From: an uncultured archaeon
GTDB lineage: Archaea > Micrarchaeota > Micrarchaeia > Micrarchaeales > CABMGC01
Reading direction: 5' to 3'
Length of the DNA: 24,075 nucleotides
Assembly: GCA_963787445.1 (NCBI GenBank)
Contig: CAWBCT010000010.1
Coordinates: forward strand, 1-24,075
Shown: positions 1 through 24,075 of the stretch, piece after piece
How positions within the stretch are numbered: the stretch's first letter is position 1
Layout of the letters: every line of letters starts with the position of its first letter
Position numbers and translations under genes: made by a program
Notes under the pieces: generated by a model
Told to the model about the DNA's origin: nothing
What the model saw: only the letters and a program-made list of their open reading frames with translations
Database searches by the model: none

Positions 1-130
1 TTTTTTGGCCATTTGAGTTACCCTTTTCATAGCGTATTTAAATTTCCCATTACCTACTTAATTTCTTATGATTCTTATATGTTCGCTTTGTCTAGAAATA
101 GAAATTTGTAGAATACGAGATTTGAACAAG

Positions 131-472
131 CCTTAACCCGTCTGGCTTACGCTCTTCACGCTATCTTACCTTCTTAGAAGAGTTGTAAAAGATCTTCTTC
201 TGCTCTCAGCAGACTTTACTTTAACCCCACCATCTTCATCTTCCTCCTCTTCCTCTTGGGTTGTGGCGTTCCTTGCTCAGGGAATCCTTTCTGCAGATCG
301 TTCCTATTCAGTACAAGCCCATCCCATACCGCTAGGGCTCCTGGATCCCTCCTCAGGGCAGATTCGGCGAAGACTCTAAGTAGGTCTAATTTTTCTATCG
401 GAGCTTTTTCCTCCGAGACGAGAGAAGTCCTAGGCGCTGGGCTCTCGTTTTAGTTCTGATCTCGGTTACCAT
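131..472 (-). pseudogene. Small orphan ORF, apparently frameshifted (MVTEIRTK/NESPAPRTSLVSEEKAPIEKLDLLRVFAESALRRDPG.../EEEEDEDGG...)
   Basis: ATG at 472 lies ~27 nt downstream of a minus-strand TTTAAATA box (~499-508). The frame can be restored with one extra A in the A4 run near 450 and a second shift near 255. No recognisable motif; 3' end uncertain. Confidence 0.3.
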
Positions 473-609
473 TTCCCCAATTGAATAACTCATTTGAAAT
501 ATTTAAACTTTCTGTACAGTGGATATTTATCAAAGGAAAAGGTTGATACACACAATATCAATTTGGGTCGCAACTGATTATTAACCTTTTTGTTTAGTTA
601 ATCGCACGG

Positions 610-1080
610 GTGTTTGTAGTGAAGAGGTGTCTGGTTTCTACGACTATCGTGTTTGACAAGGAGCATAAGAATGTAATACTCCTCAATCACAAGAAACTGG
701 AGGTGTGGATGCCGCCTGGAGGCCATATTGAGCCTGGAGAACTGCCATCTGAAGCGGCGTTGAGGGAGGAATGGAAGAGACCGGTCTAAAAGTGAATTTA
801 CTATACACAAAAAGACAGGTCGTAAAGGGAGACAGGCATGCAATAGAGGTCCAGAGTCCATTCGTTGTACTTAACGAGAACGTAGAGTACAAGGACGAAC
901 CGCATCTGCATTTCGACATGGTCTACATAGCTGAAGCAGAAAGCAAGAACGCAGCTACTTAGCCATGAATCCACAGACATAGGGTGGTTTGACAGAAAAT
1001 CAATAAAAGATTTGAAGATGTTCACTAATGTCCGTTCAGTACTAGAGGCGGCTTTCAAGCAGTTCGGTAGCAAAGAATAA
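610..1080 (+). CDS. NUDIX hydrolase, with two frameshifts (~769 and ~950) that are probably sequencing errors
   Basis: Frame 1 reads MKRCLVSTTIVFDKEHKNVILLNHKKLEVWMPPGGHIEPGELPSEAALRE. ORF 771..962 continues MEETGL, completing the NUDIX box. A third segment LSHESTDIGWFDRKSIKDLKMFTNVRSVLE ends at TAA 1080. Confidence 0.85.
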
Positions 1081-1118
1081 AGTATATGGTTTTATTGCTA
1101 TACTTTCTATCTGGTATT

Positions 1119-2732
1119 ATGAAATTCAAGAACGAGTTCACCTACCGCAAGTTTCTCGAAGATGGGAAGGAGGCTGAATTCGACAGGTTCTTTGATAACA
1201 GCGTAGCCAAGATACGAAGCGGAACACTCGGGAAGACATTTCCTATTTACATTGCAGGCAAAGAAGTCCGAACAAAGGACGAACTAGTCGAGTATTCCCC
1301 TATTAACGGCTCCTTAATCGGCAGATTCCAGAAAGGAGATAGAAACACCGCCACTGAGGCCATTAATGCCGCCAAGGCCGCCTTCCACTCATGGTCCACC
1401 ACTAACTACAAAGACCGCATCAAGATCCTCAGAAATGCTTCCTCCTTACTCTCCACCAAGAAGTTCGAGCTCGCCGCCATCCTCAGCATCGAGAACGGGA
1501 AGACACGCTACGAGTCCATCGGCGAGGTGGACGAGGCGATAGACTTCATCAACTACTACTGCCTCGAGATGGAGCGAAATAAGGGTTTCATCAGGAGGTC
1601 AAAGCTCGAAGGCACTAAAGAAACGGTCAACGCAGGCTTCCAGGGGGCTCCGGGCCAGGAGGAGAAGGTCACCATACTATTCAAGCCCTACGGGGTCTTC
1701 GGAGTGATCGCACCCTTTAACTTCCCAGTCTCCATCTCCACAGGAATGAGCGTGGGCGCCATGCTCACAGGCAACACAGTGGTCTTCAAGCCCTCCTGCA
1801 CGGACAACATGTCCATGCTCACCGGCCTCAAGCTTTACGAGATCTTCAAGGAGGCAGGGCTTCCGGACGGGGTCTTTAACTACGTAACAGGTCCAGGCTC
1901 AGAAGTGGGCGACGCCTTAGTAACCAGCCCGGACGTGGCTGGAATCGCCTTCACCGGCTCCCACGAGACCGGCTTGTCCATGATCGCCAAGTCCTACGCC
2001 CTCAGGCAGCAGAAGGTCTTCGTGGTGGAGATGGGCGGGAAGAATGCCGCTATTGTTACTAAAAACGCCAATCTCGACGATGCGGCCTCGGGCATAAGCA
2101 GCGCGGCCTTCGGCTTCAGCGGGCAGAAGTGCAGCGCCTGCTCGCGCGTCTACGTGCACGAGTCGGTGAAGGAGGAGTTCGTGAGCAAGCTGCTGGAGAG
2201 GACCAGGGCACTGAAGATAGGGGATCCTTTAATCAAGGGCAACTACATCGGCCCGCTCATAAGCGTGAAGGCGCTGGAGAGGTACAAGGAGACGGTTACG
2301 CAGCTCAGGAAGGAGCACATAATGACAGGAGGCAATCTGGTGGAGACGGGCGTGGAGGGCCTTTACGTGGAGCCGGTGGTCGCAGAGGCAGAGCACGGCA
2401 ACCCGCTGTTCAAGAAGGAGCTCTTCCTGCCAATATTGCTGGTTGACACTTACAAGAAGCTTGAGGATGCCATAAGGATGGCCAACGACTCCGAGTACGG
2501 GCTCACGGCCGGACTGTACAGCAAGAAGACATCGGAGATCAAGCAGTTCCTAAACTCCATAGAAGCGGGCACGGTTTACGTTAATAGGGCCGTAAGCGCC
2601 ACAACGGGTGCGATAGTGGGCTTCCACACCTTCGTGGGCTGGAAGGGCAGCGGGCTCACCGGGAAGGGCACCGGGAGCAGGGAGTACCTCCAGCAGTTCA
2701 TGCGCGAGCAGAGTCAGGCGGTGGTGAAGTAG
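1119..2732 (+). CDS. rocA: 1-pyrroline-5-carboxylate dehydrogenase (aldehyde dehydrogenase superfamily)
   Basis: N-terminal FKNE, APFNFP, FTGS, EMGGKN (catalytic Glu), SAFGFSGQKCSACSR (catalytic Cys), YGLTAG, NRxxxTGAIVG. The ATG at 1119 is preferred over 1086. Confidence 0.85.
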   Translation: MKFKNEFTYRKFLEDGKEAEFDRFFDNSVAKIRSGTLGKTFPIYIAGKEVRTKDELVEYSPINGSLIGRFQKGDRNTATEAINAAKAAFHSWSTTNYKDRIKILRNASSLLSTKKFELAAILSIENGKTRYESIGEVDEAIDFINYYCLEMERNKGFIRRSKLEGTKETVNAGFQGAPGQEEKVTILFKPYGVFGVIAPFNFPVSISTGMSVGAMLTGNTVVFKPSCTDNMSMLTGLKLYEIFKEAGLPDGVFNYVTGPGSEVGDALVTSPDVAGIAFTGSHETGLSMIAKSYALRQQKVFVVEMGGKNAAIVTKNANLDDAASGISSAAFGFSGQKCSACSRVYVHESVKEEFVSKLLERTRALKIGDPLIKGNYIGPLISVKALERYKETVTQLRKEHIMTGGNLVETGVEGLYVEPVVAEAEHGNPLFKKELFLPILLVDTYKKLEDAIRMANDSEYGLTAGLYSKKTSEIKQFLNSIEAGTVYVNRAVSATTGAIVGFHTFVGWKGSGLTGKGTGSREYLQQFMREQSQAVVK

Positions 2733-3369
2733 GACTTGGATTGGACATATAGTAAGATTTTGCATAAAGTCGTTCTTTTGGCAATTTTCTTGCGTCTCTA
2801 AGCGTATCTCGCACCTTCCTGCGGAAAGCAGGCTTGTACTTTTCAAGATAGGAGTTAAGCCTCCTTGAGTCAAGACCTGGAAGTATGTTCTGCCATAGCT
2901 CATCCCTTATGGCGCCTCCGAAGTAGAGCATGTCTATTATTGTCTTTTCCAAATCAGACACAGGAACCCAGAATCCATCTCGCTTTACAAGTCCATACCC
3001 AAAGAATAGTTCTGGCTTCATCCGGTATACCAGATAATTAGCACCTAAAAACGTCCGTAGACCCATTCGGACATTCTTTGGCGTGATTACTATCGGATTT
3101 GTCCCTTGCATGGAGAGACCCCTTATTCTAAGAGCGTCCTCCAACCCGTAATATGAGGGAGAGAAAGCGAAGCATAGGACGACCATGTCTTGATGGAACG
3201 TGTATATGCCCCTGGTTATCTTTGCTATAAGCCCCCGTTTGAGGAGGTTATGGATGAGGAGCCTGCGGTAACCCGCGCTAAGACCCTTTATGATCTTGAG
3301 TTCGTTGACGTTGAATACGGGTTTGGTAGTGCTAGAAAACTCCTCTTTGATATTCTGAAGGTATCTCAC
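2698..3369 (-). CDS. AbiEi-like type IV antitoxin / winged-helix transcriptional regulator
   Basis: N-terminal wHTH (LIHNLLKRGLIAKITRGIY), PSYYGLEDAL, FFGY and VSDLEKTIIDML are typical of AbiEi-family proteins. Overlaps the NTase gene by 4 nt. Confidence 0.75.
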   Translation of the reverse strand: MRYLQNIKEEFSSTTKPVFNVNELKIIKGLSAGYRRLLIHNLLKRGLIAKITRGIYTFHQDMVVLCFAFSPSYYGLEDALRIRGLSMQGTNPIVITPKNVRMGLRTFLGANYLVYRMKPELFFGYGLVKRDGFWVPVSDLEKTIIDMLYFGGAIRDELWQNILPGLDSRRLNSYLEKYKPAFRRKVRDTLRDARKLPKERLYAKSYYMSNPSPTSPPPDSARA

Positions 3370-4022
3370 TCTATCTCCCCCATTATCGTGTCTTTCATAT
3401 CCTTAAGGGACGGAACAGGTCCGTTATAGACAATACTCTGAAGCTCCTTTTCGTTTACAGGTTCTTCGAGATGTTCTATGAACTTCTTCAGAGGCCTCCT
3501 AATGAGTTCCTTCTTACCCGAATAGGCAATCAACTGATATATATCGTAAATGTCTCTTGCATATTTTCTACTCTCGTATGCATCAATCTTCTCAAGTATG
3601 TACTGCTCAGCAGTAAGTGTGCGTAATTTCAGTGTTGTCCCATTTATCCGCTCAAATTCCCTGAAGCTTCCATTTTCCTTGTCTTCTGGACACTTGATGT
3701 CTACGCTCAGTTTTGACTTTGAATTGGAGATATAAATTCTCAGAGATCTGTTTGTCGCAGATATTTTATCGGTGTAGATTCCGAGCCTTTGGAGGTTCGC
3801 TGCGATTGAGTTCTTAATTATCTCGATGCTCCTTTCCGATGCAACGTAAAGATCTATGTCAAATGAGAATCTGTTTCCTGAATAGCATCGCCAGATTCCC
3901 GTTCCTCCATGGAGCACAAAACTGTTGTCTATAGCGAATATTGTGTCGATAAACAAGTCCTGAAGCTCAGCCAGATCTATGAACTCTTGGTTCTTCAAGC
4001 TTAAGGCTATCGGAATTTTCAT
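3366..4022 (-). CDS. AbiEii/AbiGii-family nucleotidyltransferase toxin
   Basis: Motifs LHGGTGIWRCY, RFSFDIDL, EKIDAY and RKYARDIYDIY are the AbiEii (DUF1814) signature. Confidence 0.85.
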   Translation of the reverse strand: MKIPIALSLKNQEFIDLAELQDLFIDTIFAIDNSFVLHGGTGIWRCYSGNRFSFDIDLYVASERSIEIIKNSIAANLQRLGIYTDKISATNRSLRIYISNSKSKLSVDIKCPEDKENGSFREFERINGTTLKLRTLTAEQYILEKIDAYESRKYARDIYDIYQLIAYSGKKELIRRPLKKFIEHLEEPVNEKELQSIVYNGPVPSLKDMKDTIMGEIE

Positions 4023-4030
4023 ATTACCAC

Positions 4031-4107
4031 AGTTATACTATAATATAATTATAGTAGGATATAAATATCTATCTTTTTATTTACAATAGTTATATTATAA
4101 TATAATT
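4031..4107. promoter_or_regulatory. Paired palindromic direct repeats, putative AbiEi operator
   Basis: agttatactataatataatt (4031-4050) and agttatattataatataatt (4088-4107) are 19/20 identical. The region contains a perfect IR tactataat-ata-attatagta (4036-4056) and the palindrome ttatattataatataa (4090-4105), directly upstream of the toxin start. Confidence 0.6.
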
Positions 4108-4181
4108 TAGGTAAATATCAAAGGCTTTGAAGCGGGATGAGAAGACTTATATCGTTTTGACTTGCTTTAATACTGAATCAT

Positions 4182-4598
4182 ATGTGCCTAACCAAACTTA
4201 TCTACGATCACACAAAGTTCGATACAGTTGAGATACTTGCTAAAGGTAAGAAACTCCGAGTCTGGCTCGCTGATTCTCCAACCAAGAACATGGTCGGATT
4301 AATGCACAGGCCAAAGATGGGCGCCGATGGGATGCTCTTTACACCGGACAGGGAGGCAAGGCACGGGATCTGGATGCTGAACATGAAGTTCCCGATAGAC
4401 ATCCTCTGGCTTGACGGCTCAGGGAAGGTAGTTGACATTGCCCAGAATGCAAAACCATGCAAATCGATATTCAGCTGTCCCACTTACAGGCCAAAGAGCG
4501 ACGCAAGGTACGTTTTGGAGCTGCCTTCCGGCAACGCCAAGCGGTTTGGGCTTAGAGAAGGGGCCAAGGTGGACTTGACAACAATTAATAATCTTTAA
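4182..4598 (+). CDS. DUF192 family protein
   Basis: LADS...GLMHR...GMLF, IWMLNMKFPIDILWLD and YVLELPSG motifs. Confidence 0.9.
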   Translation: MCLTKLIYDHTKFDTVEILAKGKKLRVWLADSPTKNMVGLMHRPKMGADGMLFTPDREARHGIWMLNMKFPIDILWLDGSGKVVDIAQNAKPCKSIFSCPTYRPKSDARYVLELPSGNAKRFGLREGAKVDLTTINNL

Positions 4599-4612
4599 GT
4601 CGGGTGTTATTC

Positions 4613-5182
4613 ATGCCAAAAGCAAAAAGGATTCAGAAGCAGCCGTTCGGAAGACTGGGCAGATGGCTGTTCGTGATACTCTTCATTGAGCTGCTGGTCA
4701 TCTGGGCGAGGGCAGGCATCGCCATATACTACCTTTCGGGCACTACAATACCGGTGCACTACGGCCTGAATGGCGCCCCCAACGGCTACGGCAACAGCGG
4801 CGTGTTCTACATCCTCGCAGTGGCGTTCAGCATAGCCCCGGTCCTCATAATGCTCATCTCCTACTACCGCTTCAAGCTGATAAACGACTACCCGTACCTG
4901 ATAAACATGCCCGCCTTCTACGCGAGCATCATGAAGGTCTCTGAAAAGAGGAAGGGCTACTGGATAAACCGCTACTTCGAGCTGATACTGGCGCTGGGAG
5001 TGGTAGTCGCGCTGGTCTTCATCCTGCTGCTGGTCGAGCTGACGAACGCAGCCCAGACAGGCTATGCCAGCCCCGCGTTCGTCACCTGGTTCCCGATAGC
5101 GGCGATCCTGGTGATGGTCGGGCTGCTGTTCGTCCTGCTGAGGAACATGTACCGGGAGGTCTCGAAGGAAACAGGAAGATAG
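4613..5182 (+). CDS. DUF1648 / SdpI-like membrane protein
   Basis: IPVHYGLNGAPNGYG motif after a TM helix; four hydrophobic segments. Confidence 0.75.
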   Translation: MPKAKRIQKQPFGRLGRWLFVILFIELLVIWARAGIAIYYLSGTTIPVHYGLNGAPNGYGNSGVFYILAVAFSIAPVLIMLISYYRFKLINDYPYLINMPAFYASIMKVSEKRKGYWINRYFELILALGVVVALVFILLLVELTNAAQTGYASPAFVTWFPIAAILVMVGLLFVLLRNMYREVSKETGR

Positions 5183-8618: not shown

Positions 8619-10062
8619 CCATCTTCTTTCTTATTTGTTTCGTAGTGTTCCGGTCGCGTATCGTTACTGTTCCATCCTCTATAGTCTGATGGTCCACAGT
8701 TATGGCAAACGGGATGCCTATCTCATCAGCTCTCGCATATCTTCTGCCTATGCTACCAGAGTCGTCATAGACGACGCTGCATTTTGTCTTTAACCGATGA
8801 TACAGCTTCTCTGACACTTCGGGTATCTTGTCCTTGTTTACCAAGGGGTATAAAGCATATTTGTAAGGTGCTATGTTCGGAGGAAATGCAAACCATTCCC
8901 ACTCCCTGTCCTTCATACCCATATAGAAAAGATTCATTGCCGCGTAAAATGTTCGGTCTATACCGACGCTAAGTTCAAGTACGTGGGGTATAAACCTTCT
9001 CCCGTTGTAGAATATCTCGTGGGACTTCTTTGAGATCTCACCGTGGCCTTTCAGATCGTGGTCGGTTCTGTAATGTACGCCGCCAATCTCTTTGTACTCA
9101 CCAAAAGTTTCCATGAAGGCCTCAGCATCGTAGTGTATCTTGTTGTAAAATGCCCGCTCTGATGCGGAGAGCTCCCTTAGTCTGAACTTATCTTCCGGAA
9201 GTCCAATTACATCCACAAAGAATTGCTGTTGTTTTGCCATGTGATAGACATAGAACTTTGGAACTCCTTTTTGGGTTGAAAAATCAGCACAACTTATTGT
9301 CACTGTCTCTTTTTCGCCAGAGTTGAGTATTTTGAGTTTGTAGTCCTTGACTTCGTCCCACTTGTCACATTCTTCAATAGTGGAAGGGTCGAAGAAGATC
9401 TGGAGTTCCGCCTGGGTGAACTCGCGTTGCCTTATCAGAAGCTGTCTTGGGGAGATCTCATTCCTAAAGGCCTTGCCGATTATCCCTATGCCGATTGGCA
9501 GTTTGCCCCTCATTATCTTGAACTGTCTTAGGAAGTTGACGTAAGGTCCTTGAGCCGTTTCCGGCCTAAGGTAAGCGAGCGTGTCCTCCTCAGCCCCGAG
9601 CTTCGTGGGAAACATCATGTTGAGTACTTTTACCTTCTCAAGGGCTCCGCCGCACTTCGGACAGACAATCTTGTTCTTCTTGATTATTTCCGTCAGCTCT
9701 TCAGAGGTCTTTCCCTCAACGCTCTGTTTTATTGCGGCTTCTATCAGATGGTCTGCGCGGTTGTAGGTCCCGCACTTTGAGCATCTTACACTTGGGTCTG
9801 TGAAATTCTTCAGGTGTCCGCTTGCGATGAACACCTTCTCTGGCATAACGTTTGATGTCTCAATCTCAGAATAGTTCTCTCCCAAGCCGAAGTAATGCTT
9901 CCTCCAAAGATTCTCTATGTTTCGCTTAATCAGTGTGCCAATGTTGCCGTAGTCGTAGAAACCAGTAAGACCGCCGTAGATCTCGCTGCTTTGGTAGAAG
10001 AAGCCCCTGCTCTTGGCTATCTCGAAGAACTTCTCCTCTGACTTATTCTCAGTATTAGCCAC
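8602..10062 (-). CDS. glyS: Glycine--tRNA ligase (alpha2, class II)
   Basis: SEIYGG...YDYG, LRPETAQG, FRNEISPRQxLIRQREFTQAE, PHVLExSVGIDR, SGSIGRRYARADEIGIP. Confidence 0.97.
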   Translation of the reverse strand: MANTENKSEEKFFEIAKSRGFFYQSSEIYGGLTGFYDYGNIGTLIKRNIENLWRKHYFGLGENYSEIETSNVMPEKVFIASGHLKNFTDPSVRCSKCGTYNRADHLIEAAIKQSVEGKTSEELTEIIKKNKIVCPKCGGALEKVKVLNMMFPTKLGAEEDTLAYLRPETAQGPYVNFLRQFKIMRGKLPIGIGIIGKAFRNEISPRQLLIRQREFTQAELQIFFDPSTIEECDKWDEVKDYKLKILNSGEKETVTISCADFSTQKGVPKFYVYHMAKQQQFFVDVIGLPEDKFRLRELSASERAFYNKIHYDAEAFMETFGEYKEIGGVHYRTDHDLKGHGEISKKSHEIFYNGRRFIPHVLELSVGIDRTFYAAMNLFYMGMKDREWEWFAFPPNIAPYKYALYPLVNKDKIPEVSEKLYHRLKTKCSVVYDDSGSIGRRYARADEIGIPFAITVDHQTIEDGTVTIRDRNTTKQIRKKMDEIER

Positions 10063-10231
10063 TATCTCACCAAAATGCGCAGTCTTAGCTTGCCTAGACG
10101 CGTATGATTAGGTTAGCCAACGTAGGTTTATATTACTGATGTGTGGCCGGTTGTTGAGGCTACACGCACAGAAGCGAAGGCTATAAATTGCTTCTATCTT
10201 ATATCAATAAAGTATTCTAAGCGGTGTTCTG

Positions 10232-11173
10232 TTGCCATACGATAATTACAACAACCAGAAGAAGAGAGGAGGCTACGGCAGGCAGGGCGGAGGCGGCGGA
10301 AGGGACAGGCCGAGGTTCAACGACAGGAACAGGGGCTCCTACGGCCCAAGGCCGGAGGGAGGAGACGACCGCAGAAGCAGGTTCATGAAGAAGGCCAAGA
10401 GGGACGTGACCAGCGCCTACGTGACCTCATCGCAGGACCATGCGATAATTCAGGGCATAAACGCCTACAACGAGCTCGAGAAGGTGAGGAACATCCTCTA
10501 CGAGAGGCTGGAGGAGTGGTACGGCGGCTACTTCCCGAACGTAAAGATGACGAGCCACGAGACGTTCGCCAAGCTAATCTCAAGGGTGAGGAGCAAGGAC
10601 GTTGATGACTCCACACTTGAAGAGATACTGGGTGACGGAGCGACGAAGGTCTCGGACGCGATAAAATCCTCTTTGGGCTTCCCCGAGATGGGAGAGGAGG
10701 AGTACAGCGGGCTCAAGGCAGTGGCTGACGAGGTCCTCAACATAATCGAGCTTCAGAAGAAGCTGGACAAGATCCTCGATGCGCAGACGAAGAAGCTGAT
10801 GCCGAACATCACCTACCTGATTGACTATAAGATTGCAGCAGAGATGTTGGCGAAGGCTGGTTCATTGGAAAGGTTCGCGAACATGCCCGCAAGCACAATT
10901 CAGCTGCTCGGCGCCGAGAGGGCGCTGTTCAAGCACCTCAAATTCGGCGGAAGGCCTCCGAAGTACGGCTACCTGTTCAAGCTCCCTGAATTGGCAACGG
11001 TTAACAAGAAGGAGAAGGGAAGAATGGCGCGTATCTACGCGACAAAGATAAGTATCGCCTCAAGGGCGGACGCGTATTCGCACCGCTTCATAGCCGACAA
11101 GCTCAAGGAGTCGCTTGACAAGGCGAGGGCGAGAAACGCGGGCAAGCATGAAACGCAAGAAGAGATTAGTTAA
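10232..11173 (+). CDS. nop5: Box C/D sRNP protein Nop5 (Nop56/58) with a Gly/Arg-rich N-terminus
   Basis: ERLEEWYGGYFP, MPNITYL, AGSLERFANMPASTIQLLGAERALFKHL, PPKYG, GRMAR...IASRAD. TTG start preceded by GGTG. Confidence 0.93.
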   Translation: MPYDNYNNQKKRGGYGRQGGGGGRDRPRFNDRNRGSYGPRPEGGDDRRSRFMKKAKRDVTSAYVTSSQDHAIIQGINAYNELEKVRNILYERLEEWYGGYFPNVKMTSHETFAKLISRVRSKDVDDSTLEEILGDGATKVSDAIKSSLGFPEMGEEEYSGLKAVADEVLNIIELQKKLDKILDAQTKKLMPNITYLIDYKIAAEMLAKAGSLERFANMPASTIQLLGAERALFKHLKFGGRPPKYGYLFKLPELATVNKKEKGRMARIYATKISIASRADAYSHRFIADKLKESLDKARARNAGKHETQEEIS

Positions 11174-14518: not shown

Positions 14519-17500
14519 TCACAGGCCAGGCACCTGCTGGAGTATCCTATTGGAAAGCTCCTTCGTGAATAGGCGCTCCAGCTTCTTCCTTCCGGCCTCG
14601 GTTCGCAAGTCATCGACGCCCTTTATGCCCGCGTTGAACATCAGCCGGGCCCTGACGCGTCCTACCTGCTCCAGTCTGACAAGGTCCAGGAGCTCCTTCT
14701 TTATCCCGTACCTCATCCTCACCCGCAGCTCGAACAGCCTGGCCGGGCTCACCTTGAGCAGCTTGGCCAGCTCGGTGCTCGAGTAGAGCAGCCAGTCCGC
14801 GTTGTTCGTTTTCGTGAAGATGGAGCCCGGGGTCTCCCTGTACTTCACCAGCAGCTCCTGCTCGCTCGACTCGGAGATCCACTCGTTGAGCATCAGGGAG
14901 GTGCTGAACGGCCTGAGCGGGTCGTAGAAGTAGTTCTCGTAGGCTGCCTGGCCCTCCAGCAGCCGGCCGTACTTCAGGAACCGTTCCTCCGCCTCCTCTG
15001 TGGCCCGGGAGTAGGGCTTCATCTCGATGGTGTTGCAGATCATGAACAGGCAGGAGATCTCGTCCACCACCTTGGGCAGGGTGTCGATGATCCACTTGGC
15101 CGACACCGGGTCTATGTAGAGCTCGCTCACGCGCCTTCCGATCTTGGTTGCCCTGTAGGAGCTCCCCTCGCGCTCGATGAACTCCCACTCCTCCAGCTCG
15201 GCAAGTATGTCGCGCGTGATGTTCTTCAGCTCCCTGCGCTCGTTGCGCTGGTGGCCGTAGAAAGACTCGTACAGAAATGCGCAGATCGAGTCCTCCATGG
15301 TAAGGAAGTCGGTGGCGATGAAGGAGAGGACGTGGGTCCTGAGCACGGGAAGGACTCCAGCTGGGAGAAGACTGGGTCAAGATCAGAGCATCGATATAGC
15401 GCCGGTAGAGATCCTTGCCCTCTTCTGCGTTTTTGGCTATGAGGAGTGCGCGTCCGTACTTGTCGTACTTCGGCCTTCCGGCCCTGCCAAACAGCTGGGT
15501 GACCTCGTTTATCCCGATCATGACAGAGCCGTCACCTTCACTGTAGCGGTGATGTCGCGGACAACCACCGTATGGGCAGGAAGGTTAACGCCGAGCGAAT
15601 TGTGGACTATGAAAGATCCCACATAACTAGCATCTTTTTCTACTTCTAGATTATAAACCGGCCCGTTGTATTCTTGTTTACCAACCTTTCGGATAGGCAT
15701 GTAGTAATAGTTACTGTCTATCTTACCCAAATTGTAGGTTCTGTTGCCACTAAATTCAAGATTTTTGAGGAGAATTTCTTTTGCAAATTTTTTCAACTGT
15801 TTTCCCGAAATAGAAACGCGGTATATATCACCGTGTCTTGGAATTTGTACTTTATACTTTGGATTAAATGGCGTTTCAGCAGCTTTGGTGTATTTTATCC
15901 TTGGCATAAAGCCCAGTTTTATAAGAATCATGAACAGTTGGTTAGCTAGAATTTTGGAAGTTGTAGTATATTCCGCATCTCCATAGGTTTTCTTTAGATA
16001 AATTGATCCATCACCTAACCACATACCTCTTACTAAAGGTATCAACTGGTCCTTGATCAAGAATAAAAAGTTTTGTGGTAGGTGTTTCTCCCTCGCATTT
16101 CCTCCAAATAGTTCTCTAAACTTAAAGGATAGCTGTTTTGAACAACTGTTTATTGTTCTCCTGTGTCTTTCGAAATCTTTTATGTTTGAATTTAAACCCA
16201 AACTATCAAACCATTTCATTATTTTATCTGTAAGCAGGTCCTCTTTTGTATTTATGGCGAATCGTATTATTCCATTTTTGCCAGTGTAACCTTCTGCTAT
16301 AAACAAACCAATTATCTCCAAGGTATTTTGATCCAATTTAATAATATCTGTGTTAATTCTTGTCCAATGTCGCCCTACCACCCCGAATTGGTTGCTAAGA
16401 GGGCCAATCTTACTCAATTTGATGTTTTTAATTCTTCTGGACTCTTTAATTTTGGGGAATAATACCATATCACCTTTCTGTACATTTTTAGCCTCTGTCC
16501 AAGAGGGGCTTGAATACTCCCACCAAAATGTATTACGACCATCTGCCCAGTGCGAACTGTGCCTCTTTCTTTTTACAACTAAGATTCTGTGTTCCTCAGT
16601 CATACTCATCGAAAACTGACCATAGGGAGTAATTCGGACTAGATTACCTTTGTAATGACTTTTTAAGGGTAGAATTACTTTCCTGAAATCGCCAGTATGG
16701 GTAAGGACTTTGTCATCAGAATTCAATAATTGAATTGGTTTCTTTGTTAAATTTGTTATTATTTCTTCTCCAGGCGGCAAACACAAGGTAGTGGTAGAAC
16801 ATATTGCTTTTATTACCCCATTGCTGAAGTATTGCTCCATAACTGAACGCTGGGAGTTCACAAGGCCCGCATGATGGAACGCAACTCCTAATTTGACGAG
16901 TTTCGCAAGTTTTTCGCACTGGGTCGTGGGCTTGGTGAGTGCTCCGAGTATTTCTGTGGAAGCTTCTTCAAGGGCGACCTTGTCATCCGCAGAAAGCAAA
17001 GGTGCAACTGCTTCGGAAAGTTTTTCTGCACCCGACTCGGTGTTTCTCTTAGTTGAATAGAAAAGAAGTATCTGCTTCTTCTTGTCCAGCGTGTCCTGCA
17101 TTATCCTTATCTCGGGAATTGCGCTGCTTCCGGACATCTTCTCGTGCCGGTCGCCGAAGTTAATCTCGCTCTTGACTATCACCCCCTTCTCCAGAGGTAC
17201 AGGCCGGAACTCGCTGACCACCAGTTTGGCTCCAAGCCAGGAGGCCATCTCCTCGGCGTTGCCCACGGTCGCGCTGAGGCCCAGCATCTGGGCGGAAGGG
17301 CAGGAACGCCTGAGCCTGGTTATTAATATCTCAAGAGTCGGACCTCGTCCCAGCTCTCCCAGCATGTGAAGCTCGTCTATCACTATGCATCCGACGGAGT
17401 CGAGCCAGCCTATCCCGTGGCGGATGAGGCTGTCGAGCTTCTCCGTGGAGACGAAGAGAATGTCGTACTTCTCAAGGTAGGTGTCCAGGGCGTCGAGCTC

Positions 17501-17812
17501 GCCGATCGAGATCGCAACCTTGAGGTAGGGATAGGCCTGCTTTATCTCATTGTACTTCTCGCTCACGAGCGCGCGCATGGGCGCCACGTAGACCGCCTTC
17601 TTCCGGTCCCACAGGACGGAGCGCAGCATCGCCATCTCGGCTATGAAGGTCTTCCCGCTGGCGGTGGGCGCCGCAACGACTACGTTAGAGCCCGATAGAA
17701 GTCCTTTGGACACGGCAAGTTCCTGAGGAGGAGTTAGTGATTTGATGCCCCGCTGCTCCGCTGACTCTACGACTTCCTTTGGGAGATCCTTGAGCAGACT
17801 GGAGAGCTGCAT
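14519..17812 (-). CDS. hel308: Ski2-like SF2 DNA helicase Hel308/Hjm, intein-containing, with ~3 frameshifts (~15548 and 15350-15390) that are probably sequencing errors
   Basis: Q motif LTPPQ, Walker A APTASGKT, DELH, LSAT, FHHAGL, TTTL|SLGVNLPA, QLFGRAGRP, domain-5 RVRAR. The pieces 15518..17812, ~15385..15521 and 14519..15346 join with single-base corrections (e.g. ITRYSEGDGSVMIGINEV). Confidence 0.93.
15599..16783 (-). mobile_element. Intein (395 aa) with LAGLIDADG homing endonuclease, in helicase motif V
   Basis: Starts CLPPGEEII and ends GSFIVHN followed by Ser+1. Block B MTEEHRIL, block F VYNLEV, LAGLIDADG helices IIGLFIAEG and VRGMWLGDG. Markedly AT-rich relative to the host gene. 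Confidence 0.96.
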
Positions 17813-17980
17813 TAAAACAGTATTAAATGGCTCTCAACAGCTAAAATACGTGCTATGCTTCCTTCCTTTGAAGCGTCTGGAGGTGAAGATTGAGCTCTGC
17901 CTCATTCGCCATTCCGGTAAATACGATAATGGATATCCCACTTTGGCCTGCAAATCCATACCCGCTGCGCAGCACCTCCC

Positions 17981-18526
17981 TCATCCTAAGATGCGCCCGT
18001 GGGGCATCTTGGCATCGCCGACAGTTATGTCTTCAACCGAGATTGAGTGGGCTATCAGTGCATGCTGCCAGGCAATGTTCTCCGAGACATCCTGTGGAAG
18101 CTCGGGGGTGCTGGACAAAGACATATTGTAGAATACGGTGCCGATAGACTCGAGCTCGCTTTCCCGCTGCCTGGCCTCCCCGACCCTGTTGACCCGGTTC
18201 CAAGAGTCAAGAAACTGCGCGGTCCTTGTGTTTGCCCCGAATTGCACGGAGCTTGCCAGATACTCGACCTGCGAAGACTCGCCAAGCTCGAGCAGCGACT
18301 CGGCGAAGGCGCTGCTTAAGCTATACGTGGCTCTCCTAGGATACACAACCTTCCACATGGTGCTCGGGGTCTGGTTAGGCGCCATGTACCTTGTTGCCGA
18401 GACCTCATCGAACAATCCGCTAAGCTTCGCCCGCTGCTTTCCTTCAAGCCTTTTCTCGGGCAGGCCGACTAGCGCTTCAGAAAGCCGTTCCCTGTGATGG
18501 TCCTTGGCCGGACTCTTCAATATCAT
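17981..18526 (-). CDS. Hypothetical protein
   Basis: 181-aa ORF with host-like codon usage, a possible GAGG RBS and a TATATATC box upstream (~18559-18566); no motif recognised. Confidence 0.55.
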   Translation of the reverse strand: MILKSPAKDHHRERLSEALVGLPEKRLEGKQRAKLSGLFDEVSATRYMAPNQTPSTMWKVVYPRRATYSLSSAFAESLLELGESSQVEYLASSVQFGANTRTAQFLDSWNRVNRVGEARQRESELESIGTVFYNMSLSSTPELPQDVSENIAWQHALIAHSISVEDITVGDAKMPHGRILG

Positions 18527-18632
18527 CCTTAAACCTCGAAAAGAGAGGTGATTTTTCAGATATATAGGCTTAACGAACCTATTTTGGAAAAGTATAAAAG
18601 CTTGGAAAGCCAGATGAACTTAGTTGATTTGA

Positions 18633-19115
18633 TTGGCTTTCAAGACAAAGGAAAATCCTGATGCAGCTGAAGCAAACCCTTTCAAGAATCTCAGGATCAA
18701 GCACGATGCGCAGGAGAAGGAGGAGCGGCTGGACGAGATAAAGGTGATAGAGGGCGACAGGATCATGGGCTCGCACGTCTTCGGGAACCTGTATAAGATA
18801 GACAAGGAGGTTGCAGGCAATCTCAACTCCATAAAGAAGATTATAGAGGAAGCGGCTGGCGCCGGGAACATGCGCATCGTTGAGATAAAGGCATTCTCAT
18901 TCGGTGAAAATAGGGGCGGAGTGACGGCGATAGCGATAATGCAGGTGGGCCACATCGCCCTCCATACATGGCTTGAGTACAACTACGCGACCCTTGACGT
19001 TTACACATCGGGAACGATGGCAAGCGCGGACAAGGCATTCGACTACGTAGTCTCGAAGCTCAAGCCGAGGAGGCACCAGAAGTTCAGGGCGGACAGGAGC
19101 CAGGTCGAGCTGTAA
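18633..19115 (+). CDS. S-adenosylmethionine decarboxylase (SpeH/SpeD class 1B) homologue lacking the pyruvoyl-forming Ser
   Basis: MGSHVFGNLY, F..GGVTAIAIMQVGHIALHTWLEYNYATLDVYTSG aligns with the consensus GVT.....ESH...HTWPE...A..D..TCG. Confidence 0.85.
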   Translation: MAFKTKENPDAAEANPFKNLRIKHDAQEKEERLDEIKVIEGDRIMGSHVFGNLYKIDKEVAGNLNSIKKIIEEAAGAGNMRIVEIKAFSFGENRGGVTAIAIMQVGHIALHTWLEYNYATLDVYTSGTMASADKAFDYVVSKLKPRRHQKFRADRSQVEL

Positions 19116-19163
19116 TCGTTCAACCAAAAGTATTTATTTGTTGAAAAGGAGAGTTATCCTCGT

Positions 19164-19235
19164 GCCTCAGTAGCTCAGTGGTAGAGCATCGGTTTTGTAA
19201 ACCGAGGGTCGAGGGTCCGATTCCCTTCTGAGGCT
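19164..19235 (+). tRNA. tRNA-Thr (anticodon UGU), no intron, CCA not encoded
   Basis: Acceptor GCCTCAG/CTGAGGC plus discriminator T; D arm GCTC/GAGC; anticodon stem TCGGT/ACCGA with loop TTTGTAA; T arm GAGGG-TCCGATT-CCCTT. Confidence 0.95.
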
Positions 19236-19263
19236 AAAACACACATAAACGCTCTGTTTGAGG

Positions 19264-20196
19264 TTAAAGCACTTTTTTGCGGGTGCTCTTGTAAAACAAG
19301 CTCTCCGACAATCTGTTAAGGATTATCGGCTTGTCCACAAAAAACGTACGAAGTTCTGTAGTATAAGGCTCCAACCGTCTGATTAGGATATTGCTGTACT
19401 CCAGATAGTCATTGAAAGATAAGGATAGCTGAATGACGGTAACGCACTTGCTTCCGGAATACGCGACCACGCATCTGGGCAACCCTTTGATGTCTTCTAT
19501 GTTGATGTCCCTGCTCAGCGAGAATACGTGGTAGGCTATCTTCATCGAGTTAAACGCCTCTCCGGGTTGCGAAGCGGAAAATAAAGGAAGTACCCGTTCT
19601 TGATTAGCTGCTGTTTTCTGTATTTTATGACCGCAGGATTCGACCCTAGCTCATCGGAGGATTCTTACAAGTGTTTTCTTCGCCCCGCCGTTGGCCATGC
19701 TATGGATGAGTCGTACATCAAGATTGTCAAAGTTTATCTGCCCCTCATTTTCATTGTATTTCTCCGGCTCGTGATCGATGTCAAATATTGTACCTCCAAG
19801 TCCATGCGATCTTGTCAGTAATTGCGAGATGTGCCGTTCTGGTAGCATTCCCTCGAACTTTCCAATCTCCCATTTATTCCTGAAGAAGCAGAAGATCTGA
19901 TGCGAAAACTCTCCGAAAAGTCGCTGAAGGCCGAAACATATCTCCATTCTTACGATATTCTTGATCTGCTCCTCGTTGAGAGATACATAGTACATTTTGT
20001 AGATGAATGGCAGCGCATGGTATTATTTATTCAAGCTGTCATATCTGGATATAAATCCCTCCTGCTCCAGCTTTTTGATTGGGGCATAAACTGACGGCTG
20101 CTTGATACCTACTATCTTTGCTAGCTCCCTTGTTGAAAGCCGGGCATCGTAGAATAGGCTCTCGAACAATATCTTGTCGTTACGGGATAGCTCCAT
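19264..20196 (-). CDS. Lrp/AsnC-family regulator with tandem HTH units, broken by several frameshifts (sequencing error or pseudogene)
   Basis: HTH1 LSRNDKILFESLFYDARLSTRELAKIVGIKQPSVY...KKLEQEGFI. HTH2 FDNLDVRLIHSMANGGAKKTLV/SDELGSNPAVIKYRKQQLIKNG, read across a shift at ~19660. Fragments are 20023..20208, 19651..19995 and 19264..19545. Confidence 0.75.
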
Positions 20197-20217
20197 GATT
20201 ATATCCAAACGAGCTGA

Positions 20218-20286: not shown

Positions 20287-21411
20287 ATGTTCAGAAGTGT
20301 TCATATGCCGGGAGTCGCAGAGAATGTGGTAGAACCTTTCACGGAGAGCCGTCGAAGCGGCACGTCATTCGGCGTCGCGGAAAACGCGGTAGAGCTTTAT
20401 CCCAGACTTTACGAAGATAGGGCTGTGCTTGTGAACTTGGAGATAAACAACAAATGCAGCTATACGGTGACCTGCGGGAGCAACTGCATCTTGAACGCGA
20501 CAATGCCTAATTCAACGCCAATGCCTGAGAAGGAGACCCTGCAAGCTGCATTCGAAACCATAGCAAACGGCGCCACAGTAAGGCACCTCGCCATTCCTGG
20601 CAAGGAACCGTTGGAGAGCCCGGAGCTGATGCTAAGGATACTTGAAAGGTACCACAATGCGCCGCAGAGCCAACGGCCAGGCACGATAGGGATAATAACC
20701 TCTGGATTGCTGATGAAAAAGAGTACGCCGATATTCCGAGAATACCCTCTAAATTGGATGAATTTGTCTGTTGACACCGCAGCGTCGGGCTTGAGGGTGC
20801 CAGGGAACTCGATAAGAGCCTTGGATGACGCACTAGAGCTTAGGGAACTGGGCGGTCTCGGGAAACTAGGCATAAATACGATTCTCACGCACGACAACAT
20901 TGAAGACGTTATCAAGACGGGGAGACACCTTGAGGATAAGGGCGTCGACCAGTGGAGCGTCGGTGGGATGCTGGTCTCGGACGGCAGGTCAATGGTGCAC
21001 ACCCTGAACGCGGCGGAGCATCGCGAGCTTTTCGGCAGAGTCGCAGCCGAGTTTGCAGGCAGCAAGATGCAGCTACTGTTTGTCACTGACAATGTCCACA
21101 TCGAGCAGATAACCGGAAGACAGACGCCAAGAGAGGCACTCACTAGATGGAGGACAGAGATAGACGTGGCTCCGGGAATCAGGGCGATAGCCTTGAATCC
21201 GTCTGAAGGATATTTCTTCAGGCTCAGATGGGACGGCCAGCTGCTTAGGAAGTCTGATTTTGGGAAGGTAGGGCTAAAGGAAGGCAGTTACGGAGGGTAC
21301 GCACCCGGCAGGATCGCCGACCTGTTGAACGAATTCAGCAACCTGCGGAGAGGCGCCACCTCCATTCAGACTAAGCCCGTACAAGCCTCCAAGAGGCTAG
21401 TTTCTGTCTAA
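20287..21411 (+). CDS. Radical SAM-fold enzyme with a non-canonical CX5CX3C motif
   Basis: VNLEINNKCSYTVTCGSNC, then IPGKEPL (GGEP equivalent), IITSGLL (TNG equivalent), MNLSVD and INTILTHDN, in normal radical-SAM order and spacing. Confidence 0.75.
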   Translation: MFRSVHMPGVAENVVEPFTESRRSGTSFGVAENAVELYPRLYEDRAVLVNLEINNKCSYTVTCGSNCILNATMPNSTPMPEKETLQAAFETIANGATVRHLAIPGKEPLESPELMLRILERYHNAPQSQRPGTIGIITSGLLMKKSTPIFREYPLNWMNLSVDTAASGLRVPGNSIRALDDALELRELGGLGKLGINTILTHDNIEDVIKTGRHLEDKGVDQWSVGGMLVSDGRSMVHTLNAAEHRELFGRVAAEFAGSKMQLLFVTDNVHIEQITGRQTPREALTRWRTEIDVAPGIRAIALNPSEGYFFRLRWDGQLLRKSDFGKVGLKEGSYGGYAPGRIADLLNEFSNLRRGATSIQTKPVQASKRLVSV

Positions 21412-21488: not shown

Positions 21489-21500
21489 CCTTCTGAGGCT
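21489..21500 (+). repeat. Copy of the tRNA-Thr 3' end (putative attR core)
   Basis: ccttctgaggct, identical to 19224-19235. Confidence 0.65.
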
Positions 21501-21573: not shown

Positions 21574-21675
21574 CATCCATACCTCAAGAGCGGCGATGGG
21601 CATCTCAGGGCTTACAATATGCTCATAAACAAAGGCTATCAGGACTCGTTGATTCAGGCATACATGGGCTGGAAT
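21574..21675 (+). pseudogene. Tyrosine recombinase/integrase C-terminal remnant
   Basis: HPYL...GHLRAYNMLINKGYQDSLIQAYMGW resembles box II (HPYLxRHSRAT.L...G.....IQ..MGW). No N-terminal part; cut at the downstream junction. Confidence 0.5.
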
Positions 21676-21803
21676 CCCGCGAACGTGTCGTGGTCGGTGA
21701 TCGCGAGAATTCCCACCTGGGCGCGGCGGGCGATATCAATCAGCTCCGAGGGAAAATCCGAACCGTCCGATTCGTTCGTGTGGCAATGCAGATCAATCAA
21801 CAT
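21654..21803 (-). pseudogene. PHP-domain (TrpH/YciV-like) phosphoesterase, N-terminal fragment, bacterial
   Basis: Not in the ORF track. MLIDLHCHTNESDGSDFPSELIDIARRAQVGILAITDHDTFAGF carries the DLHxHT/SDG/AITDHD motifs and ends after 49 aa in unrelated sequence. Confidence 0.85.
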
Positions 21804-22084
21804 GCGGAGGCGTTGGCCTGACAGCGCGAATTTTCCATGAAAATTAAATATTTAATTTCTCCGGCTTTTCGAAGCAGCAATGCTTAAGAATATCGCGATT
21901 GGCCCTCATTTCTAAAATCCGACTGCACTTTAAAAAGCGCTTACTGGCAAGGGCCGGTTGAATTGTGCGCGAAGAGCTATTCCTCGCCCTTTGCTTGCTC
22001 GGCTTAACTCACGGACGCCCGAGGCCAACCTCAGGGGGGGTTGTTCACTTGGTTTTCACACTTCCGGGCGCTAGGCTGTGCGGT

Positions 22085-22599
22085 CTGATCTCGACGGACA
22101 GCCACGATGCTTCTCAACTCAAGGAGATCACCGGCGGCTGGAGTTACTGCGTTCGGAGAGCTGAAGCTGGAGGCCGACAGCCTTCCCGGTGAAGCGGACG
22201 TTCACCCAGACCATCGTGCGAGCGCGCGCAACCTGCTTCATTATCTGGCGCTCCGACGGCACGACATTCGCGATTTGCAGGAGCAGCTGGGCGCTATGGG
22301 GCTCTCCTCGCTAGGGCGCACCGAATCGCACGTTTTCAGCGCCCTCCACGGCGTGATGGACGTGCTCGCGCGGCTGGATGGAAGCGACGCCCCGCAACAA
22401 GAACCAAACGGCATGGTGGCACTGGCCGAGGGCCAGAGGCTCCTCGAGAAAAATACCGACACGCTTCTCGGACCTGCCCCGGACGGACGGCGGGTGCGCA
22501 TCATGGTGACGATGCCATCGGAGGCCGGGTGCGACTATGCGCTCGTACGCGACCTGGTGGCGAGCGGAATGAATTGCATGCGCATCAACTGCGCGCACG
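22085..22599 (+). pseudogene. pyk: Pyruvate kinase (long N-terminal bacterial form), 5' fragment
   Basis: SARNLLHYLALRRHDIRDLQ..L...GLSSLGRTESHV, LLGP...RIMVTMPSEA, GMNCMRINCAH. Homology stops abruptly at ~22599; the start is approximate because of frameshifts near 22130-22160. Confidence 0.85.
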
Positions 22600-23034
22600 A
22601 ACGGCGTCGGCACGAGCGAAAATTGCCCAGGCATAATCCCCGCCCGGATCGGCACCCGGTGTGGAGGTCGCCAGCCGCACCGCGGGATCCAGCATCCGGT
22701 CCAGCAGATTGTCCTGCGTCAGCCCCGGCCGCCCCAGCGCGCACAGCCGGTTGCGCGTGAACATGATCACCGGCTGACCGGCCTTGGCTAGCACCCGCGG
22801 CTGCGTCATATCCGCGGACGCCAGAATATCCGCCGCCTCGCCATGTTCGATGCGTTCCCGCAACACCCCCGACGGCCCGAACACCGGCTCAACGCCTGGA
22901 AACTCCTTCGCCATCGCGGTGAACGCACCGGTCAGGCTGCCCGCCGCCAACACCCGCACATCGTCCGCCCACCCCGCCGCCGGCCACAGGAAAACGCCGC
23001 AGACCAGCAGAACAATCCGCACCACCCGAGCCAT
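22585..23034 (-). pseudogene. ModA-like molybdate ABC transporter substrate-binding protein, 5' part
   Basis: GGAGG RBS, then a signal peptide MARVVRIVLLVCGVFLWPAAGWA, LAAGSL, FGPSGVLRERIE, ADILASAD, TSTPGADPGGDYAW; truncated at the junction. Confidence 0.85.
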
Positions 23035-23094
23035 CTGGACCCTCCGCCGTCGCGTCGCTATATCCCGGCAACCATAGCAGCGAAGACCCGGCCC

Positions 23095-24075
23095 ATGTCG
23101 ACGACCGAACAGACCCGTCCCGCCACCGGCCAGTTGCGGCACGCCCGGATGCTGATCGACGGGGCGGGGCGGGGTCGACAGTGCATCCGGCGCAACGCTA
23201 ACGTCGAAAACCCCGGCCGTCGCATGCCGGTCGCAACCATCCCGCGCGGCAACACTGAAGACGTCCCGGGCCGTCGAGGCGGCCCAGAAGACGTTCCCCG
23301 GCTGGAGCAAAACTCCGCCCCGCCAGCGCGGCCGGATGCTGCTGCGGATCGCCGAGGCCATGGAAGCCCGGATCGAGGAACTCGCCCACGTCATCGCCGA
23401 GGAGACCGGCAACGCGCTCCGTACCCAGGCGCGACCGAAGCGACGTTAACAGCCGATATTTTCCGCTATTTCGGCGGTCTCGCCGGCGAACTGAAGGGCG
23501 AAACCATTCCGCTGGGGAAAATGTCCTCAGTTATACACGCCGCGAGCCGCTGGGCGTCGTGGGCGCCGTCATTCCCTGGAACGCCCCGGTGTTGCTGGGC
23601 GCGCTGAAGATCGCCCCCGCGCTGGTCGCGGGCAACACGCTGGTGCTGAAGGCCGCCGAAGACGCGCCGCTGGGTGTGCTGTTCGTGGCCCGTGTCTGCC
23701 AGGAATTCCTGCCACCCGGCGTGCTGAACGTGCTCACCGGCCTGGGCGAGGAATGCGGCGGTCCGCTGGCGCAGCACCAAGCCATTCGGAAGCTGTCCTT
23801 CACCGGTTCGACGGAAGTCGGCAAGATCATCATGCACGCCGCCGCCGAACGGATCGTCCGGTGTTGCTTGAGCTCGGCGGCAAGAGCCCGCTGATCGTCT
23901 ATCCGGACGCCGATGAGGACTGGGTGGTGGACGGCGTCATCGCCGGCATGCGCTTCACCCGGCAAAGCCAGTCCTGCACTGCTGGCTCGCGGTTGTTCCT
24001 GCATCACGGACATCTTCGACAGCTTCCTGGACAAGCTGACCGCGGAAGACCCAGGCCCTGAAGCTGGGCGATCCG
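23095..24075 (+). CDS. Aldehyde dehydrogenase (bacterial), multiple frameshifts, runs off the window
   Basis: MLIDG, ENPG, IPWNAP, GNTLVLKAAEDAPL, FTGSTEVG, LELGGKSP and QSQSCTAGSRL are spread over several frames. Confidence 0.88.

Follow-up and report, generated by a model that had tools for sequence, protein, structure and literature searches.

The 24,075-nucleotide contig CAWBCT010000010.1 (hereafter the window), which was assembled from an uncultured archaeon of the Micrarchaeota (GCA_963787445.1), carries a gene at 20305..21411 on the forward strand whose product appears to represent a genuine new subfamily of radical S-adenosylmethionine (SAM) enzymes, which is rare and is distinguished by a new spacing of the cysteines in its cluster-binding loop. 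The canonical cluster motif of radical SAM enzymes is CX3CX2C and follows strand beta1. The predicted loop of the present protein (20455..20487, +) reads C57-SYTVT-C63-GSN-C67, corresponding to CX5CX3C, and the translation agreed with the original prediction that these are the only three cysteines of the protein. It also gave G105-K106-E107-P108 (GKEP; 20599..20610, +) at the place of GGEP, the motif that holds the methionine amino group of SAM in radical SAM enzymes, T138-S139-G140 (20698..20706, +) at the place of TNG, and a C-terminal hairpin (Y309-FFRLRWDGQLL-320, YFFRLRWDGQLL; 21211-21246, +) within a C-terminal half lacking cysteine, all as predicted. The open reading frame (ORF) listed for the window spans 20287..21411(+) and encodes 374 amino acids (aa). 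Because the eight homologues retrieved by the first protein search all start at M7 of the query, the ATG at 20305 is the likely start, giving an ORF of 20305-21411(+) and a protein of 368 aa. Residues are numbered throughout from the upstream in-frame ATG 20287, as in the original prediction, whose start coordinate 20455 is the codon of C57 and not the start of the gene.

A word-indexed search gave eight relatives at E ≤ 0.001 among 4,537 candidates, and C57, C63, and C67 were invariant in all nine aligned sequences, down to 36% identity. An HMMER profile of this nine-sequence set was searched against 1.84 billion cluster representatives, which yielded 152 proteins at E ≤ 0.001, 60 at E ≤ 1e-10, and 53 at E ≤ 1e-30. 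A sharp gap in E-value was observed between P0065 (1.1e-14) and P0066 (3.1e-10), past which the matches were mostly ordinary CX3CX2C radical SAM proteins. The family was accordingly taken as the 64 proteins P0002-P0065, amounting to approximately 60 clusters at 50% identity, of which 50 members cover the loop and 14 are fragments without the N-terminus. The loop spacing was CX5CX3C in 45 of the 50, CX7CX3C in three, and CX5CX2C in two, with the consensus C-x-Phi-T-x-x-C-G-x-x-C-[IVYF]-L-N. In the alignment of 43 full-length members (A2), which spans identities down to 27% in a family that is otherwise 27-40% identical, the invariant columns were the three cysteines, E107, S161, and D163; L69, E90, R130, P154, G189, N197, W223, W288, R289, R312, R314, and G336 were conserved in at least 90% of the members, and no further conserved cysteine column was present. 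The 90% cluster of the query holds three sequences from three contigs with 1-3 residue differences and an identical loop, one of which bears a name, "hypothetical protein". Because three natural variants from three contigs carry the same loop, a sequencing artefact as the cause of CX5CX3C is excluded. Contigs of run X1 in Logan left the motif unaltered as well, covering 20341-20633 with 0 differences, and X1 may be the source sample and is not independent support.

The register of the three cysteines was examined with hhalign, by which the family profile was compared with an alignment of 12 distant CX3CX2C relatives (A5). This gave a probability of 99.9% and an E-value of 2e-32 over 291 aligned columns, with 'EINnkCsyTvtCGsnCiLN' placed opposite 'EINddCml--kC-pyCyLd' and the loop flanks 'EIN' and 'C-Phi-L-N/D' conserved on both sides. 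The same register was obtained from four hidden Markov model (HMM) alignments (P0067, P0070, P0103, and P0076). Since the full-length profile-profile alignment places them so, C57, C63, and C67 are, by alignment, the canonical Cys1, Cys2, and Cys3, and the loop is a CX3CX2C with insertions of two and one residues. Several of the 12 relatives share the whole architecture including the C-terminal hairpin, and the others align over the barrel only. The borderline relatives P0066 (CX5CX2C) and P0079 (CX9CX2C) vary in the first spacer, which is therefore regarded as plastic in the wider clade; what sets the family apart, as judged from these alignments, is its X3 second spacer.

A model structure was built with AlphaFold2 on the nine-sequence alignment, which attained a mean predicted local distance difference test score (pLDDT) of 77.9 and a predicted template-modelling score (pTM) of 0.79. 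It consists of six beta-alpha units, whose strands are located at residues 47-51, 98-103, 133-138, 155-161, 191-200, and 222-227, followed by the C-terminal strands 262-268, 289-295, 298-303, 309-313, and 318-320 and a long terminal helix (342-362); confidence is low at residues 1-29 (pLDDT <50) and 359-374. Foldseek gave 165 matches in the PDB at E ≤ 0.001, and among the matches listed nearly all were radical SAM enzymes. The top match was MoaA (1tv7_A, E 6.5e-9, 367 columns), and SuiB (E 2.5e-8), fungal and mouse viperins (E about 1e-7, template-modelling score (TM) 0.44-0.46), PqqE (E 1.2e-6), and BlsE (7vob, E 4.2e-6, 347 columns) were also matched. The modelled fold is a radical SAM partial (beta/alpha)6 TIM barrel of the MoaA/SuiB/viperin-like kind, in line with the radical SAM fold proposed originally. 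The single protein searched against the PDB with phmmer gave noise only (UvrA, E 0.8), and its matches in the ESM Atlas were generic radical SAM clusters only.

Among PDB sequences, the best match by far to the 43-member profile was BlsE (E 1.7e-9, 168 columns), followed by viperins and MoaA at E about 0.02-0.05. In the BlsE alignment, GKEP is paired with GGEP, IITSG with IITNG, VSVD with VSLD, VNT with VNS, and DQW with RQW. E107 of the GKEP motif is invariant in all 43 members. T138-S139-G140, invariant in nine of nine close homologues, lies at the end of strand beta3 in the canonical TNG position, and S161-V-D163 (20767..20775, +), whose S and D are invariant in 43 of 43, lies on strand beta4 in the canonical ribose-contact position. 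We infer from these pairings that the SAM-binding apparatus is intact and that a cluster and SAM would be bound.

BlsE, a cytosylglucuronate decarboxylase (PDB 7VOB/7VOC, TIGR04466), is thus the closest sequence relative among solved structures, though the two differ in several respects. BlsE has the canonical CX3CxMC and GGEP, whereas the family has CX5CX3C and GKEP, and the BlsE gene sits in a nucleoside-antibiotic cluster whereas the bacterial members of the family sit in an importer operon. The cut-off of TIGR04466 is 400 bits, and the family is far below it; the query showed no match at E ≤ 0.01, and 13 of the 43 members matched weakly, with a best E of 3.1e-9. According to PMC3715490, C31, C35, and C38 of BlsE and each residue of G73-G74-E75-P76 were mutated, and BlsE has Met before the third cysteine where other enzymes have an aromatic residue.

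The C-terminal beta-rich domain and terminal helix (21064..21411, +), delimited by the AlphaFold2 secondary structure and by conservation, contain W288-R289 and the hairpin given above, and W288, R289, R312, and R314 (R312-x-R314-x-D-G) are near-invariant there. This domain cannot hold an auxiliary cluster, because it has no cysteine. SPASM/twitch enzymes, which have auxiliary-cluster cysteines in the C-terminus where the query has none beyond C67, align structurally with the model over more than 340 columns (Foldseek). The strand-hairpin-helix layout of the model and the full-length alignments to MoaA, SuiB, and BlsE agree with the reading of a cysteine-free twitch-like domain. The canonical-motif relatives were found by hhalign to have the same C-terminal domain, and a profile of the domain gave 0 matches at E ≤ 10 among PDB sequences, BlsE included. 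The opposite terminus carries a single copy of the motif M-x-x-x-A-E-x-A-x-E in most members, at the very N-terminus according to the alignments. In the query and its two closest relatives, P0003 and P0004, the corresponding GVAENxVE motif is doubled (GVAENVVEPF ... GVAENAVELY, 20311..20403, + in the window), and these three grouped in a quick tree with a Shimodaira-Hasegawa-like approximate likelihood ratio (SH-aLRT) value of 100. This acidic motif could act as a plug, contact a partner, or mimic a substrate.

Comparison with other known systems placed the family apart from each of them. MoaA (GTP 3',8-cyclase), the top structural match, likewise combines a barrel with a C-terminal beta-rich domain, but it binds a second [4Fe-4S] cluster via C-terminal cysteines, of which the family has none, and the query scored 17.6 bits against the MoaA model TIGR02666 with a cut-off of 284. 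R312-x-R314 may resemble the R266/R268 pair of MoaA (entry 2fb2). HmdB/HcgA (CX5CX2C) and QueE (CX14CX2C), cited as variants in the original prediction, are borne out as extended-loop radical SAM cases by PMC4389238. They share with the family a lengthened first spacer, and two of the 50 members are themselves CX5CX2C; the likeness drawn here is one of motif spacing, and the family, unlike these enzymes, has an extended second spacer as well (X3 in place of X2). As a SAM-cluster motif, CX5CX3C was not found described, nor was such a second spacer, and the full-text matches containing 'radical SAM' were SPASM auxiliary-cluster motifs or unrelated proteins. The full-length CX3CX2C relatives P0067, P0070, P0103, and P0076 share 'EIN..C', GKEP, ITxG, SxD, and the 'F-R-L-x-x-DG' hairpin, with HMMER E-values of only about 1e-9 in the whole-library search. 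Homologues with the ordinary motif therefore do exist, but they are unnamed, none of them reaches an NCBIfam cut-off, and the function of the family is not explained away by them.

Existing annotation models did not recognize the family, as had been anticipated for a new subfamily that motif scans could miss. Pfam Radical_SAM (PF04055) matched seven of the 43 members at E ≤ 0.01 (best 8.7e-5) and scored below its threshold for the query. No NCBIfam model came near its cut-off for the query or for family members; those matched by most members were BlsE (13/43), tungsten-cofactor maturase (10), MoaA (10), and viperin (8), and no named family fits. PHROGs gave no match for the enzyme or for the ORFs around it that are described below.

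The family is rare, patchy, and cross-domain, occurring in Bacteria and Archaea. Most members are singletons from metagenome assemblies. It was found in 0 of 400 other genomes sampled from the phylum of the window, including five of the same genus (the listed genomes being 0.6-1.0 Mb), and in 0 of 400 other genomes from the phylum of a Verrucomicrobiae metagenome-assembled genome (MAG), the one GTDB genome that carries it. A tblastn search of two family members against 72,556 plasmids gave no match, and with the family alignment A3 no relative was confirmed among 133 pattern matches on viral contigs or among 86 pattern matches on genome contigs. Gene neighbourhoods were compared at three loci, namely the window, L003 (the Verrucomicrobiae MAG; radical SAM gene at 10001-11035), and L004 (a metagenome contig; radical SAM gene at 2278-3330). 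Both bacterial loci show the same order on one strand, in which a protein of approximately 390 aa without a Pfam family is followed by the radical SAM gene, an SBP_bac_5 solute-binding protein (SBP), and two BPD_transp_1 permeases. In L004, the radical SAM gene shares a 4-nt overlap with the SBP gene, and two oligo_HPY ATP-binding cassette (ABC) ATPases adjoin. The enzyme had been described as lone; this did not hold in the two bacterial loci recovered, where it adjoins ABC-importer genes. The best matches of the SBP, all weak, were to proteins that bind nickel (Opp5A/NikA) or glutathione (GsiB), with scores far under the cut-offs. The approximately 390-aa protein of L004 had no Pfam, NCBIfam, or PHROG family, those of L003 and L004 gave no tblastn match below E = 1 in the genome of the window, and their N-termini resemble, by eye, a Cro/C1-type helix-turn-helix. 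The SBP_bac_5 gene that follows the radical SAM gene in L003 is split over two frames (L003:10603-12626), corresponding to a frameshift or an assembly error.

In the archaeon, the gene stands on what reads as a strain-specific islet of 2.3 kb that was inserted at tRNA-Thr(TGT). This tRNA gene (19164..19235, +; ARAGORN) forms the left border, and its 3' end (19224..19235, +) is repeated exactly as a 12-nt direct repeat at 21489..21500(+), 78 nt past the radical SAM stop. The repeat occurs in exactly two copies in the window, approximately 2.27 kb apart, while 0.00 were expected from shuffles. Contig C4 of the same MAG, which represents a related strain, matches the window over 16757-19236 and nothing beyond, the identity being 93.6% in the helicase, 83% in the AdoMet decarboxylase, and 100% in the tRNA; past the tRNA it continues with phosphoribosyltransferase-like, SfsA, and phosphoribosyl pyrophosphate (PRPP)-synthase genes. 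The islet holds a 61-aa winged-helix regulator (20023..20208, -; Pfam HTH_24, MarR, TrmB) that is divergent from the radical SAM gene and has weak NCBIfam LrpA, Lrs14, and Sta1 matches, all under the cut-off, together with two small ORFs without any family. Beside it lies a tyrosine recombinase remnant that encodes the C-terminal catalytic motif (…HLRAYNMLINKGY…AYMGW; 21601..21672, +), which shares 79% nucleotide identity over 72 nt with a 237-aa Phage_integrase ORF on contig C9 and is cut by a contig junction; its 87-aa translation gave no Pfam match. We propose that the radical SAM gene is horizontally acquired cargo in this archaeon, and the islet fits the patchy distribution of the family.

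Taken as a whole, the observations are best explained, with good probability, by a working single-cluster AdoMet radical enzyme of a rare subfamily, and that the protein is an active radical SAM enzyme is very probable from its sequence. In this scheme, C57, C63, and C67, whose register was set by alignment, would ligate one [4Fe-4S] cluster, their loop exceeding the usual length by three residues. SAM would bind to the fourth iron and be held on the six-stranded barrel by GKEP (E107), T138-S139-G140, S161/D163, and N197. One-electron reductive cleavage of SAM would then generate a 5'-deoxyadenosyl radical, which may abstract a hydrogen atom from a substrate placed between the barrel and the cysteine-free twitch-like domain with W288-R289 and R312-x-R314. 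A small anionic substrate, such as a sugar acid, a nucleoside or nucleotide, an opine-like compound, or a short peptide, would be favoured over the precursor of a peptide that is made on the ribosome and then post-translationally modified (RiPP), given the lack of an auxiliary cluster and the many arginines among the conserved residues. A small molecule is to some degree more probable than a peptide or protein as the substrate. In the two bacterial loci recovered, the radical SAM protein is the only enzyme in an operon with an Opp/Nik-type ABC importer, and a compound imported by the adjacent transporter is put at even chances as the bacterial substrate. The archaeal copy would have been acquired horizontally together with the small winged-helix regulator on the islet. 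The host can run radical SAM chemistry, since 6-7 further radical SAM genes of its genome score above the Pfam cut-off.

Several observations weigh against parts of this interpretation. The model confidence falls to a mean pLDDT of 56 across residues 61-70, exactly in the cluster loop, and Pfam Radical_SAM reached 21.7 bits against a cut-off of 29.5, with a match that starts after the cysteine loop. Lys takes the place of the second Gly of GGEP, and the residue preceding the third cysteine is N, R, S, A, H, D, or T and never aromatic; the latter is compatible with a characterized active enzyme, because BlsE has Met at this position (PMC3715490). Local HMM alignments to BlsE, viperin, and P0073 put C63 and C67 on Cys1 and Cys2 and N70 on Cys3. 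An assignment of C63/C67 as the canonical Cys1/Cys2, with C57 as a recruited upstream ligand, was considered and was overruled by the full-length hhalign alignment. The importer link was present in two of two bacterial loci and in zero of one archaeal locus, the latter being truncated approximately 260 bp downstream, and the MAG has a single SBP_bac_5 gene, located in the contaminant part of contig C5, which has 65-73% GC. The approximately 390-aa neighbours in L003 and L004 are barely alike (22% over 224 residues, E 4e-4), and that of L004 has a single near-identical relative.

Other accounts of the protein were weighed against a working single-cluster enzyme acting on a small molecule. Viperins are also single-cluster radical SAM enzymes with a cluster-free C-terminal extension, and a viperin-like antiviral enzyme, carried for defence on a small mobile islet, would turn a nucleoside triphosphate into an analogue that terminates chains. 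The single cluster without auxiliary cysteines, the conserved arginines that could hold a triphosphate, the viperins among the Foldseek matches, the weak matches of viperin and prokaryotic viperin (pVip) HMMs, and the strain-specific islet at a tRNA with its integrase remnant are all consistent with this. Against it, viperins have the canonical CX3CX2C and a different gene context, and the query scored 15.9 bits against the NCBIfam viperin model NF038283, whose cut-off is 180. The PADLOC pVip models, with E 0.0032 for the query, matched seven and six of the 43 members at E ≤ 0.01 with a best E of 8e-6, so that MoaA and tungsten-cofactor maturase do at least as well and BlsE does better; the bacterial members reside in importer operons and not in defence islands, and none of the pattern matches on viral contigs was confirmed. 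The comparison with viperin made in the original prediction thus held as a generic likeness and found no specific support, so that an antiviral enzyme of this kind is highly improbable and viperin-like nucleotide chemistry more generally very unlikely. BlsE-like chemistry on a sugar acid or nucleoside is conceivable, if unlikely. Somewhat less likely again would be an undescribed radical reaction on a compound that a dedicated Opp/Nik-type importer supplies, e.g., a metallophore, an opine, or an unusual peptide, for which the loop and the acidic tail would be functional adaptations.

A peptide- or protein-modifying enzyme, acting on an imported peptide, a co-encoded one, or its own N-terminal tail M-x-x-x-A-E-x-A-x-E, would suit the Opp-type transporters beside the bacterial members, which are classically peptide importers, the structural neighbourhood of SuiB, PqqE, and other peptide maturases, and the conservation of the short N-terminal motif in so divergent a family. 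We regard this as quite unlikely, in view of a protein of only about 340-370 aa without SPASM/twitch cysteines or a domain at the N-terminus resembling a RiPP recognition element (RRE), where the tail is predicted to be disordered. The annotated ORFs of L003 and L004 include no peptidase or exporter; precursor-like small ORFs were not searched for. The least probable account, to which we attach very little weight, is that of an inactive relic, a non-SAM Fe-S protein (a pseudo-radical-SAM), or an assembly artefact. The altered loop spacing, GKEP for GGEP, and the sub-threshold Pfam score would fit it, as would the messy MAG with its chimeric ends and redundant contigs and the join of P0156 inside the gene. 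Against it stand the invariance of the three cysteines, E107, S161, and D163 and the conservation of N197 in at least 90% of 43 members so far diverged, the occurrence of the same sequence on three contigs with 1-3 substitutions, and a frame that is open and full-length, with the chimeric junction of the window 260 bp outside the gene.

This junction and the surroundings of the gene were also inspected. Up to about 21.67 kb the window is archaeal and encodes a Nop5-type protein, SepF, an archaeal-type prolyl-tRNA synthetase (ProRS), and a DEAD-box helicase with an intein. At 21674 the GC content rises abruptly to 66-67%. Four runs belonging to different studies have contigs that match the window rightwards, starting at 21674 or 21676, and leftwards consist of unrelated high-GC sequence; none of them bridges the junction 21673/21674. 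Because of the GC jump and these leftward continuations, the right 2.4 kb (21674..24075, 66% GC, outside the feature) most probably belongs to another, bacterial organism through a chimeric join, about 260 bp downstream of the radical SAM gene. Its genes are bacterial-looking; one encodes an SBP_bac_11 protein, and a match to aldehyde dehydrogenase falls where ORFs of several frames overlap. P0156, from an 88-kb contig of another assembly, is near-identical to the query to approximately residue 289, with a single observed substitution (E10K) in roughly the first 40 residues, and continues in an Ala/Arg/Pro-rich frame; this looks like a second, independent chimeric join inside the same gene. 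Elsewhere in the MAG, the first ~78 kb of contig C5 has 65-73% GC, contig C4 is an inverted duplication of itself, contigs C18 and C19 are 95% copies of window positions 1-5170, and contigs C15 and C5 give identical radical SAM matches.

Some further genes of the window were recorded. A pyruvoyl-type S-adenosylmethionine decarboxylase (18633-19115, +) lies just upstream of the tRNA and is 83% identical in the related strain; its closeness to a SAM-using enzyme is probably a coincidence, because it is outside the islet and present in that strain. A Hel308-like DEAD-box helicase (15518-17812, -) carries a LAGLIDADG/intein insertion, soon after which its ORF stops, and a 303-aa ORF without a Pfam match (14610-15521, -) follows with a 4-nt overlap; together they could be a split or frameshifted helicase. 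An AbiEi antitoxin/AbiEii nucleotidyltransferase toxin pair (type IV toxin-antitoxin) was located at 2698-4022(-) in this small archaeal genome.

Radical SAM enzymes are usually recognized by CX3CX2C and the Pfam model, and the present family fails both, so that motif-based censuses of the superfamily undercount it. It suggests that the second cluster-loop spacer, and not the first alone, can lengthen without the loss of any SAM contact. In practical terms, what is gained is modest, namely a new subfamily for annotation resources and a possible new reaction, and the tie to a transporter in bacteria offers an experimental handle, as the ligand of the transporter should be the substrate. If the doubtful case of an undescribed reaction on an imported compound were true, the loop may change the seating of SAM on the cluster, or the tail may be an in-cis plug or substrate mimic for an arginine-rich pocket. 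The family would then constitute a self-contained module for import and radical processing, which would also travel as a minimal islet of regulator and enzyme into small-genome archaea.

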